This document shows positions 39,404 through 40,092 of a stretch of 63,338 nucleotides of DNA, piece after piece. Numbering within the stretch: position 1 is the first letter of the stretch; each line of letters begins with the position of its first letter. A model generated the notes under the pieces. It was given only the letters and a program-made list of their open reading frames with translations, did not search any database and was not told the origin of the DNA. The position numbers and the translations under genes were made by a program. Source of the DNA: an uncultured bacterium (lineage in GTDB: Bacteria; Bacillota_I; Bacilli_A; RFN20; CAG-826); the NCBI GenBank assembly GCA_949299165.1, contig CASFZJ010000014.1:1-63338 (forward strand), given 5' to 3'.

Positions 39404-39449
39404 TTTGGTAAATCTTGCCAAACTTTTTTTATTGTTCTAATTTGTTGCT

Positions 39450-39664
39450 GAGAAAAATGATTTAACTAAAAAGTGAAGTACTTGTACTTCGCGAGTTCGA
39501 TTCTCTACCTTCTATGATCTTTTTTAAGATCTAGTGCTCGTGAGGAGCTTCCTGAATCATGGAACCCACTCCGACGAATCGTGTGGAAAACGTTCTCAAA
39601 CAGGCTTATGGCTTATATTCGGCTGCCGGTCAACCTACATTGATAGCGTCAAATCATTTTTCTC
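39450..39664 (-). ncRNA. Putative structured ncRNA, copy 1 (family not recognised)
   Basis: 17-bp closing stem (fully paired with one G.U on the minus strand), 100-bp core identical to copy 2, internal hairpins incl. CGA-UUCG-UCG. Confidence 0.6.
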
Positions 39665-39913
39665 TACATTTAATTTATCTAGTTATTTTTAGGTAAAGTA
39701 ATATGCTATCAAATATTGCTTTTATAGATAAAACTTGCAAATCTTCTTGTGTTCTCATAAGTAGCGCTAAGTCAAGATTAATCACCTCCTTTGTTAAAAA
39801 TTTAATAAGAAATTAAATATTGGGAAATTAAGAAATAAAGATTTATGAATTTTTGAAAGTTTCATAAAGCTAATGAACTCTAAATTTCTTAATTTGTAAA
39901 GTGTTTTGTTGCT

Positions 39914-40092
39914 GAGAAAAATGATTCAACATTGGTCTGCAGTACTTGTAGTTCTGGGGACACAAAGGATTATCCATCTATGATCTTTTTTAAGATCTAG
40001 TGCTCGTGAGGAGCTTCCTGAATCATGGAACCCACTCCGACGAATCGTGTGGAAAACGTTCTCAAACAGGCTTATGTCAAATCATTTTTCTC
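39914..40092 (-). ncRNA. Putative structured ncRNA, copy 2 (family not recognised)
   Basis: 17-19-bp closing stem (two G.U on the minus strand), identical 100-bp core, different variable slot. Confidence 0.6.

Follow-up and report, generated by a model that had tools for sequence, protein, structure and literature searches.

Organization of the Locus

The window, by which we mean the whole 63,338-nt stretch of DNA that was analysed, carries two tandem cassettes, W1 (copy 1, 39450-39664) and W2 (copy 2, 39914-40092), in the interval between an MFS and an ABC gene (Table 1). An earlier note on this DNA had drawn attention to both, and its outline of them holds: they share a core, a 103-nt direct repeat (39508-39610 = 39974-40076, 99-100% identical) that is GC-rich (scaffold G+C ~0.42-0.47 versus 0.30 for the genome), and each copy is closed by inverted arms of ~17 nt with 13-nt arm cores that are 100% complementary. 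The repeat is real but is not limited to the cassette; direct-repeat spacings of 464-466 place the repeated unit at ~464 bp, a period that arises because every unit has its own leader. Nor are the cassettes strictly ORF-free, since copy 1 is overlapped by two mechanical plus-strand ORFs (52 and 45 aa), but that description is nearly true, and neither copy 2 nor the sister species retains either ORF.

In this sister species (G030), three cassettes (GA, GB, and GC) occur between the same MFS and ABC genes. A 7-nt slot previously read as variable proves to be a CAC(A/C)CCAAT-like sequence in four of the five cassettes, copy 1 alone deviating. All five have the post-guide hairpin, with some pairs broken, and no further genomic copy of it was found with <3 mismatches. 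The tail AGCAACAAA is the same in W1 and W2, near-identical in the three sister-species cassettes, and confined within the genome to the array.

Within the W1 leader lie a hairpin whose loop contains GATAGC (about 39697-39722) and, at about 39783-39793, an SD-like AAAGGAGGTG with TTG-ACT-TAG after it; this leader and the sister-species GB|GC spacer share 71% identity. The array leader, which has an SD-like GGAGGTG with TTG-GTT-TAA and a terminator-like hairpin (40242-40219), is 87% identical to that of the sister species, compared with 71-78% for other non-coding spacers. The promoter-like motif that heads the array has 19 genomic copies, located upstream of ordinary genes on the same strand, and at the array head it is present at about 10x depth in public-run contigs. 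A promoter scan returned four sigma-70-like sites versus 5.3 expected. None of the five public runs located for the stretch is an RNA run.

Table 1. Coordinates and strands of the array features and of the tRNA genes that the slots resemble
Feature	Position	Strand	Remarks
tRNA-Asp	35713-35788	+	resembles W1 slot
tRNA-Phe	35805-35880	+	resembles W2 slot
Conserved tail after W1 3' arm	39441-39449	-	minus-sense AGCAACAAA
W1 3' arm of closing stem	39450-39466	-	inverted repeat, partner 39648-39664
W1 post-guide hairpin GAAGUAC-AA-GUACUUC	39475-39490	-	
W1 guide-like slot, 20 nt	39491-39510	-	begins where scaffold identity ends
W1 ωRNA-like scaffold	39511-39647	-	CM match, 122.6 bits; 5 helices with covariation
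W1 5' arm of closing stem	39648-39664	-	inverted repeat
W1 unit leader/spacer	39665-39904	-	degenerate copy of promoter-like motif inside
W2 tail and 3' arm	39905-39930	-	25/26 identical to cassette GC
W2 post-guide hairpin, weaker pairing	39939-39954	-	
W2 guide-like slot, 22 nt	39955-39976	-	
W2 scaffold, 5' end 38 nt shorter in assembly (doubtful)	39977-40075	-	CM match, 79.5 bits
W2 5' arm	40076-40092	-	inverted and direct repeats
Array leader	40093-40249	-	GATAGC-loop hairpin about 40131-40153
Promoter-like/5'-UTR motif heading array	40250-40330	-	AT-rich stretch and hairpin CCTCCTTCGTATTAAGTGAAGG

Copy 1 had also been described as carrying an extra 38 nt. As a difference between the copies this is doubtful, public-run contigs being in conflict with the window assembly, and it is probably an assembly artefact. 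The core contig passes without a break through the 38 nt at 2-3x the flank depth, the contig at the right flank of copy 2 starts with 12 letters unlike the window left of 40076, and a related strain (X5) joins 40068 to 39610, so that the copy 2 slot gains a full scaffold. A 7-nt GGCTTAT duplication at about 39603 in copy 1 is a probable artefact too; it is missing from every public-run contig over 39603 (X1 25.7/25.7, X3 115.7/115.7, X4 8.92/8.92 depth), in a check on DNA contigs only, which can show presence and not absence.

A Covarying Fold on the Minus Strand

The full copy-1 cassette is far more stable than shuffled sequences on either strand (z -4.4 minus, -5.0 plus; 0/200 shuffles each). 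The proposal of a minus-strand RNA is borne out by the closing stem: across the five cassettes the arm differences take the form U-A / U.G / C-G and G.U / A-U, and the minus strand is assigned as the RNA strand because the plus strand would have C.A mismatches in place of the U.G / G.U cells. Within the core, the elements predicted in the earlier note, namely a GCTC/GAGC hairpin, a GATCTT/AAGATC hairpin, and a long stem with its cap at CGAUUCGUCG, are helices with compensatory changes. Ten scaffold copies from the two sister species share one fold with 95.8% of cells paired, compared with just 27-43% in slid controls. Covariation is evident among the homologous scaffolds, with compensatory (both-side) changes in 12/22 pairs (0/500 shuffles as high), a count made on 10 sequences from 2 species in an alignment that had been fitted to the model. 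The fold is kept between scaffold lineages that have diverged by ~24-27%.

The 17-nt terminal inverted repeats might be taken for those of a MITE or another DDE-transposase TIR transposon with a structured insert, but this is very improbable given that arms and tail are confined to the array, that no target-site duplication is found (the left flank TTGTTGCT is constant and the right flanks differ), and that the arm changes are G.U-compatible on one strand alone. Rfam offers no family that matches at gathering scores or at E<=10: at gathering scores the window yields just a T-box and five tRNAs, and the 12 rows of the region scan at E<=10 are weak, at chance level, and far below gathering, with the core covered by none. 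A retron msr/msd-like RNA, a Y RNA, or an IS110 bridge-type RNA of unknown family would share the long end-to-end stem and the combination of a constant and a variable part, yet such an assignment is scarcely credible. The Rfam scans give no match of this kind, the suggested Y RNA included; the retron reading fails because the 98.4%-complete genome has no match to an RVT_1 reverse transcriptase (PF00078); and the scaffold is accounted for by homology to a TnpB-adjacent RNA.

Homology to a TnpB-Linked ωRNA

A genome-wide sequence search with a 240-nt cassette query returned four places, among them C15:28398-28499, which is ~75% identical over about 110 nt and abuts, on the gene strand, the stop codon of an IS200/IS605-family tnpB gene, T1. 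The scaffold, for which no family had been recognised, is therefore homologous to the region directly 3' of tnpB in the same genome, and is very probably ωRNA-derived. As copies of a TnpB ωRNA, the cassettes would be a variant of a known RNA class and not a new class. Covariance model (CM) R1, which matches both window scaffolds (Table 1), scores the T1 scaffold at 141 bits. The T1-linked ωRNA (reRNA) has the same five-helix scaffold fold in the same orientation to the guide, which begins a few nucleotides past the terminal hairpin. The T1 copy differs in having a local 5'-side palindrome, not a long-range arm, and no post-guide hairpin.

T1 is a 447-aa ORF (C15:28518-29858) that matches OrfB_IS605 (1.7e-12) and Cas12f1-like_TNB (3.2e-12) and aligns to solved TnpBs (8iaz, 3.9e-21; 8h1j/8exa, about 1e-17), with LaTranC chains among its structural relatives (1.9e-14). 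It retains the motifs IGIDLGLK, CIETLD, and DRDLNAA, which we take to be the RuvC D-E-D triad of TnpB, plus CxxC...CxxC. The previous statement that TnpB is lacking stands for the window, the array contig having no TnpB-like match and none lying within 63 kb, but not genome-wide, as four TnpB-like genes occur on contigs C15, C2, C7, and C1. We count the array as "stand-alone" because all of these genes are on other contigs. Orphan scaffolds on C6 and C11 constitute ωRNA-only loci besides the array; they have neither a closing stem (z -1.15 and -1.98) nor the post-guide hairpin. The same-strand promoter-like motif is also located upstream of the T1, T3, and T4 TnpB genes and of all three ωRNA-only loci, and a looser variant precedes the T2 TnpB gene.

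Scaffold identity ends sharply after ...ATAGA, and the slots, of 19-22 nt, are different among the five cassettes; the 20-22-nt slot occupies the position of the ωRNA guide. The guide-RNA architecture proposed earlier, that of a minus-strand structured RNA with a constant scaffold and a swapped ~20-nt segment, is thus upheld. The scaffold beside T1 itself shows 98% conservation from one species to the other, as against 73-76% for the array scaffolds, so that the constraint on the array looks to be one of "fold only". Between the sister species, 15 nt of T1's own guide have been replaced.

Conservation in a Sister Species

The slots of two G030 cassettes are orthologous to those of the window. 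The W1 slot is 16/20 identical to that of GA, a cassette with an internal duplication, and the W2 slot is 21/22 identical to that of GC, although their scaffolds are just about 76% identical. Overall, G030 and the window are 88-96% identical in the arms (14-17 nt across cassettes), 80% and 95% in the slots, and 71-78% in the spacers. Of 60 genomes of the genus, the same two contain both T1-type TnpB (at least 93% identical) and the scaffold, and the comparative evidence covers these two species. G071 has two weak CM matches (26 bits), each placed at the 3' end of a distant tnpB gene. In G069, the closest of the other relatives examined, the array locus is an intergenic region of 113 nt, and ARAGORN detected no tRNA genes in the five loci scanned, which together indicate that the array is specific to the G000/G030 lineage. 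The best E was 0.067 when the CM was run unfiltered on 10 loci, syntenic or related, from other members of the genus.

Beyond the genus genomes, an exact 21-mer of the scaffold was found among genome contigs in the sister MAG alone (2 stretches), and an 18-mer in 32 stretches of metagenome contigs, 0/32 of which pass the CM at E<=0.01. A blastn search of phages and plasmids with the cassette gave no match, and phages searched by tblastn with T1 yielded 12 records, none of which reaches 60% identity (the 10 listed at 26.5-37.2%).

The same comparisons bear on whether the cassettes could be non-functional, tnpB-less IS200/IS605-family (PATE-like) relics that were tandemly duplicated and homogenised by gene conversion, with slots that are old flanking DNA (tRNA-gene pieces) out of conversion's reach. 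The W-type and G-type scaffolds are 73-76% identical, like the neighbouring spacers (71-78%); the agreement of W1 with W2 (100%) and of GA with GC (94%) fits concerted evolution; and unit number and order vary (two in G000, three in G030, another order in X5). The internal duplication of GA, the decay of tRNA likeness in G030, and the lack of slot targets in the genomes and viral contigs searched point the same way. However, relics would not be expected to keep 95.8% of cells paired and 12/22 pairs compensated after about 25% divergence, nor to conserve the arms (88-96%), the W2/GC slot (95%), and the leader (87%) better than the spacers. The unit spacers contain no detectable TnpB coding remnant (tblastn best E 0.31), and neither LE/TAM nor other copies of the cassette-specific parts were found. 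We therefore regard relics as unlikely, and the cassette RNA as probably a selected, functional structured RNA.

Two further classifications were rejected. For a PATE or other non-autonomous IS200/IS605 element, the units have no motif in common on their 5' side, and the 4-5 nt that immediately precede them vary (TCGC, CCCA, TTGC, TGGT, CTCA); the cassette-specific parts occur only in the array; and Y1 TnpA is represented by fragments at three contig ends elsewhere. For a CRISPR array, the unit of ~464 bp and scaffold of ~125-137 nt are to be set against repeats of about 23-50 nt with similar-sized spacers, and Tandem Repeats Finder reported no CRISPR-type array.

The Guide-like Slots Resemble Adjacent tRNA Genes

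The W1 slot is antisense to the tRNA-Asp T-arm (35761-35777) at 15/15 positions, or 17/17 with two flanking nucleotides, and the W2 slot matches tRNA-Phe from anticodon stem to T-stem in the sense orientation (19/20, one gap); for each slot, none of 200 shuffles reached that score. Slot GB does not resemble a tRNA (51/200 shuffles). Both tRNA genes are unchanged in G030, while the G030 slots drift from the tRNA likeness. The slots have no target in their own genome at <=4 mismatches and none in G000 plus G030 at <=3, and the guides of T1 and of the C6 orphan, searched likewise, have no convincing target. Among viral contigs, two chance matches were obtained with a 17-mer, neither of them extending further, and no match with a 19-mer.

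The resemblance raises the alternative of a TnpB-independent functional RNA exapted from an ωRNA, for example one that regulates tRNA-Asp/tRNA-Phe or the convergent MFS gene, by an antisense mechanism or otherwise, or an end-protected stable RNA. The significant tRNA likeness of both window slots, with 15-17 nt of tRNA-Asp complementary to the W1 slot, would be in keeping with such a role, as would a closing stem and post-guide hairpin that the TnpB-linked copy lacks and a scaffold weakly constrained in sequence with its fold kept. Yet the W2 slot has the same sense as tRNA-Phe and so cannot form pairs with it, the slots of G030 drift from tRNAs that are themselves unchanged, slot GB is not tRNA-like, and the array co-occurs with the T1 TnpB; we consider exaptation of this kind quite improbable.

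A Model for the Array

We favour, with a probability of roughly 60%, a reading in which the minus strand of this region encodes stand-alone ωRNA (TnpB guide-RNA) genes arranged as a short tandem array. Every ~464-bp unit would comprise a leader, an ωRNA scaffold of ~125-137 nt, and a unit-specific guide-like segment of 20-22 nt. Specific to the array are the hairpin after the guide and the arms of 14-17 nt, through which the 5' end of a cassette pairs with its 3' end. Judging from the sequence, transcription may proceed leftward from the promoter-like motif at about 40250-40330, and the closing stems may insulate the units and/or be cut by RNase III, releasing them. The genome encodes an RNase III gene, and processing of the end-to-end stem by this putative route is plausible. 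The released RNAs might then load in trans onto the T1 TnpB and add to its targets; it is the scaffold identity, of about 72-80%, that suggests T1 as the array's partner. A trans-acting guide function for T1 is advanced here tentatively. Several features count against the favoured reading: the guide is internal, with hairpin and stem after it, unlike the canonical 3'-terminal guide of ωRNAs; tnpB is absent from the surrounding 63 kb; the array scaffolds are much less conserved than that of T1; no slot has a target in the genomes and viral contigs searched; slot GA has drifted and the G030 slots depart from the unchanged tRNAs; and the C6 and C11 orphans lack a closing stem. Improbable, in our estimate, is the extended proposal of a fixed chromosomal multi-guide ωRNA array acting in trans for an immobile, nuclease-competent TnpB, a step toward a CRISPR-like array with guides derived from or aimed at the neighbouring tRNA-Asp/tRNA-Phe genes.

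Relationship to Known Systems

According to the accessible text of PMC10691335, there are stand-alone ωRNAs, which act in trans together with compatible effectors, and their biological role is described there as unknown; PATEs, in the accessible portion of PMC10055086, often encode ωRNAs on which TnpB must act in trans. The window units resemble both in combining a scaffold with a guide-like segment in the absence of an adjacent tnpB, with a related-scaffold TnpB elsewhere in the genome. In contrast, the window array stays at a fixed locus in two species with no sign of mobilisation, and its units are tandem, with an internal guide followed by a hairpin and a closing stem of 14-17 bp. The accessible text of PMC10691335 also reports ωRNA-like arrays with long (>60 bp) repeats beside some TnpB/Cas12f-like genes. 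As far as that text goes, these share with the window tandem ωRNA-type scaffolds, sharp boundaries, and differing guides, but they lie beside effector genes, whereas the window array is off every TnpB contig and has 2-3 units with a period of about 464 bp, a comparison drawn from the main text of the article.

Type V CRISPR arrays and TranC intermediates likewise present tandem guides for a TnpB/Cas12-type protein, but the window repeat is a whole scaffold of ~125-137 nt in place of a 23-40-nt repeat, with no tracrRNA/crRNA split. A further parallel is offered by TldR, whose guide RNA is encoded next to tldR. In the accessible parts of the reports concerned, TldR guide RNAs are domesticated, immobile TnpB-type guides that are host-directed (PMC10705468; 10.64898/2026.09.22.753285), and in this respect they are like the array proposed here. 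They differ in that TldR proteins have lost RuvC residues where T1 keeps nuclease-type motifs, and in that no promoter-matching target was found for the window slots in the genomes and viral contigs searched. Stand-alone ωRNAs and ωRNA-like arrays are thus already known; what is unusual here is that the cassettes are closed by an end-to-end stem, have a hairpin after the guide, and lie away from tnpB.

Implications

The locus provides a compact study case, with two to three ωRNA units that carry different guides at one conserved locus, in an array with no linkage to the TnpB, which is vertically inherited and retains nuclease-type motifs. Its unusual traits are a closing stem with strand-specific covariation, a conserved post-guide hairpin, and guides that resemble two adjacent tRNA genes. 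Were the multi-guide array reading true, the guides could bind the tRNA operon or attack elements with segments of tRNA genes, for example tRNA-integrating phages or islands, and the 15-nt replacement in the T1 guide would point to a novel route of guide exchange without transposition. If the RNAs are not made or not loaded, the locus would illustrate how tandem-repeat gene conversion can mimic a constant-scaffold-plus-variable-slot design. If they are made and loaded onto T1, it would document the passage of a transposon guide RNA into a host multi-guide array, together with a means of punctuating and processing its units.

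Identity of the tandem cassettes

The earlier note had described two ORF-free cassettes as structured RNAs of unknown family, an observation that is largely real. Cassettes W1 and W2 share a 103-nt common stretch (99–100% identical), each is bracketed by inverted arms of about 17 nt, and full W1 (39445–39670) folds far better than shuffled sequences (z −4.4 and −5.0 on the two strands; 0/200 shuffles). The scaffold has a G+C content of 0.42–0.47 versus 0.30 for the genome. The repeated unit is larger than the cassette, with direct-repeat families at 464–466 bp spacing and motifs common to the inter-cassette DNA of the units.

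An Rfam check at gathering scores gave no match for the scaffold, with one T-box and five tRNAs elsewhere in the window, and a check of the cassette region at E ≤ 10 gave nothing for the scaffold. The T-box leader (15276–15482, minus strand; 99.7 bits, gathering score 93) is ordinary. Searching the whole 1.43-Mb assembly with W1 identified four places: W1, W2, and copies on contigs C15 and C6 about 75% identical to W1. The C15 copy lies directly 3′ of the stop codon of a 447-aa ORF (T1), on the same strand; T1 matches OrfB_IS605 and Cas12f1-like_TNB and is therefore a TnpB. In IS200/IS605 elements, the scaffold of the TnpB guide RNA (ωRNA) is the structured region at the tnpB 3′ end, followed by the guide. 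By homology to this region of T1, the supposedly unknown family is that of the ωRNAs; the window strand homologous to the T1-linked scaffold is the minus strand.

In alignments, T1 matches solved TnpB structures; it retains IGIDLGLK, CIETLD, and DRDLNAA, together with two CxxC pairs. Read as the RuvC triad and a zinc finger, respectively, these motifs make T1 look nuclease-competent from its sequence. There are four TnpB-like genes in the genome (C15, C2, C7, and C1), none on the window's contig, consistent with the absence of TnpB from the window noted earlier. A genome-wide search for reverse transcriptase found none. The only Y1 TnpA sequences are fragments located at the ends of three contigs; these suggest a multicopy IS breaking the assembly. 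Of the orphan scaffolds, which lack a tnpB, that on C6 is conserved together with its downstream “guide” in the sister species G030, and that on C11 is similar to the TnpB-2 and TnpB-3 scaffolds, starting ATTAGTACGG.

Positions of the cassettes and associated features (C, contigs of the window's genome unless stated)
Feature	Position	Strand	Remark
Cassette W1	window 39450–39664	−	
Cassette W2	window 39914–40092	−	
C6 orphan scaffold	C6:54386–54515	+	without tnpB
C6 orphan scaffold, G030	C72:1751–1880	−	without tnpB
C11 orphan scaffold	C11:40040–40157	+	without tnpB
Y1 (IS200-type) TnpA fragments	C22:19647–19874; C7:57947–58084; C13:39511–39648		contig ends
Probable assembly error, W1	window 39603–39609		7-nt duplicate; unsupported by public-run contigs
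Probable assembly error, W2	window 40069–40076		38-nt loss; unsupported by public-run contigs
Motif at head of array	window 40250–40330 (40250–40268)	−	
Motif copies	C1:66185; C2:79814; C3:100284 and 124145; C5:54769; C6:53879; C7:48083; C8:10939/11420/11898; C11:39707; C13:19171; C15:30333–30720 (×4); C17:4106; C21:8298		

Scaffold fold and closing stem

The fold was assessed on ten scaffolds: W1, W2, the G030 cassettes GA, GB, and GC, two T1-linked copies, two C6 orphans, and the C11 orphan. The five helices are 95.8% paired, covariation is present in that 12/22 pairs change on both sides, no measure is reached by any of 500 shuffles, and partners slid by 1–3 columns are only 27–43% paired, figures that overstate independence because the alignment is model-fitted and represents two species only. 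One helix-1 pair is U.G in 8/9 sequences; such pairs fit the minus strand only, bearing out the proposed minus-strand RNA. The terminal hairpin before the slot (the guide-like segment) likewise has compensated pairs. In GA (L005:141–193), this hairpin and the slot start are internally duplicated, the second hairpin copy being degenerate.

The closing stem comprises 13 invariant pairs, two informative pairs (U-A 2, U.G 2, C-G 1; and G.U 3, A-U 2), and one that is mostly kept. It is absent from the C6 orphan, the C11 orphan, and the T1 copy, the last of which has a local palindrome in its place.

Slots and sequence conservation

Scaffold identity stops after ...ATAGA; the next 19–22 nt differ among cassettes and are followed first by a hairpin with the consensus GAAGUACAAGUACUUC, then by a linker, and finally by the 3′ arm. 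The 7-nt stretch previously read as a second slot is this linker and, being CAC(A/C)CCAAT-like in 4/5 cassettes, is no designed variable site.

The W1 slot contains 15 nt (17 with flanking nucleotides) antisense to the tRNA-Asp T-arm, and the W2 slot matches tRNA-Phe in sense, from anticodon stem to T-stem (19/20 with one gap); neither score was reached by any of 200 slot shuffles against all 43 tRNAs. On this evidence, both slots appear to derive from tRNA sequence, one in antisense and the other in sense. The two tRNA genes are adjacent, 3.6–4 kb away within the window. Both tRNAs are identical in G030, in which the likeness is not maintained, the slots having drifted from both (GA, 11/200 shuffles; GC, 2/200); comparison of the GB slot and the T1 guide with tRNAs revealed no likeness. 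Read as guides from ATAGA, W1 mismatches tRNA-Asp at its first five positions, and W2 has an indel relative to tRNA-Phe. Given the seed requirement of TnpB, the host tRNA genes would not be cut, because of these seed mismatches and the indel.

The slots are orthologous between species (W1 and GA, 16/20; W2 and GC, 21/22). Between the two genomes, identity is 88% and 96% for the arms, 87% for the leader right of W2, 71–78% for spacers, 90–98% for coding DNA, 73–76% for array scaffolds, and 98% for the T1 scaffold. Within genomes, scaffolds are homogenized (W1 equals W2; GA and GC are 94% identical; GB is about 25% different), so gene conversion is at work, and it alone can yield an identical core beside unlike slots. 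Retention of the fold in lineages about 25% apart argues for selection on scaffold structure. At the T1 loci (L003:1455–1470 in the window's genome; L015:1630–1645 in G030), the 15 nt after the scaffold end (...GTTAGTTGGACG) are replaced (2/15 identical) between flanks 92–98% identical, a swap at the guide position with the insertion site unchanged.

Distribution and assembly of the array

Among 61 genomes of the order, cassette-length matches beyond the window's genome occur only in G030, of the same genus; hits in seven other genomes are of chance size (24–32 nt). The scaffold covariance model R1 matched 3/60 genus genomes: the window's own and G030 at five places each, and G071 at two, both weak (26 bits) and overlapping 3′ ends of distant tnpB genes. 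In the T1 protein comparison (10/60 genus genomes matched at E ≤ 1e-30), a T1-type TnpB (93% identical) was found beyond the window's genome only in G030, all other matches being ≤48% identical. An exact-pattern scan of genome_contigs found only a G030-like MAG, and 0/32 stretches from metagenome_contigs passed the scaffold model. The three G030 cassettes lie at the corresponding locus, flanked as in the window by MFS and ABC-transporter genes; in the next relatives, the array is absent at the corresponding gene.

Two studies supplied the four DNA metagenome runs whose Logan contigs were used to check the assembly. No public-run contig spanning the position of the 7-nt GGCTTAT duplicate of W1 contains it. 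Depth in the core contig (39511–39665) is 2–3x that of the flanks, and this contig continues across the 38-nt piece missing from W2 in the window. The first 12 letters of the contig on the W2 right flank do not fit the window, and a contig from a related strain (run X5) joins 40068 to 39610, which yields a W2-slot cassette whose scaffold is complete and which has spacer of the W1 type on either side. The 38 nt regarded as extra in W1 therefore probably reflect mis-assembly, the loss from W2 being unsupported by these contigs. Strains differ in the number and order of units.

Putative expression signals

A lineage-specific motif of about 60 nt, comprising an AT-rich stretch (...TTTTTTTAACATTTTTCGAATTGAC) and an SD-sequestering hairpin (CCTCCTTC-GTATTAAGT-GAAAGGAGG), has 19 copies in the genome, with a depth of about 10x in public-run contigs. 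It precedes ordinary genes as well as, on the RNA strand, the array, the C6 and C11 orphan scaffolds, and three of the four TnpB genes; the fourth, T2, has a looser version. The spacing of its hexamers is not that of a sigma-70 promoter. Within each array unit, an SD-like GGAGGTG is accompanied by a TTG-codon-stop mini-frame; the unit also contains a hairpin, and its GATAGC loop is complementary to the first scaffold bases, GCUAUC. These signals suggest right-to-left transcription of the array. The genome has a gene for RNase III, an enzyme that trims the stems in which the 5′ flank of a stable RNA pairs with its 3′ flank.

The 1-kb non-coding stretch upstream of T1 is filled by four tandem repeats (C15:30333–30720, minus strand), all about 121 nt long and carrying the promoter-like motif; these repeats are conserved in G030. 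At C6:53898–53925 and C21:8317–8345, the motif is followed by the mini-ORFs MIFES* and MIFEA*, which look like attenuator leader peptides, and then by a hairpin.

Relation to known systems

Excerpts of one study describe stand-alone ωRNAs, without effector or transposase, in genomes having effector loci, where they act in trans in a role described as unknown, and irregular ωRNA-like arrays (repeats >60 bp) near some TnpB/Cas12f-type genes (PMC10691335). According to an excerpted account (PMC10055086), palindrome-associated transposable elements (PATEs) are frequent carriers of ωRNAs, on which the effector acts in trans, and TldR systems are summarized as domesticated TnpB-type repressors. The excerpted TnpB/ωRNA literature on orphan, PATE, and trans guides, supplements aside, mentions neither end-to-end stem-closed ωRNA cassettes nor tRNA-like guides.

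The locus is a tandem, stem-closed ωRNA array unlinked to tnpB, a variant of a known RNA class. Its slots may represent former flanking DNA, captured fragments, or functional guides, and the array could plausibly act in trans as a guide set for T1.
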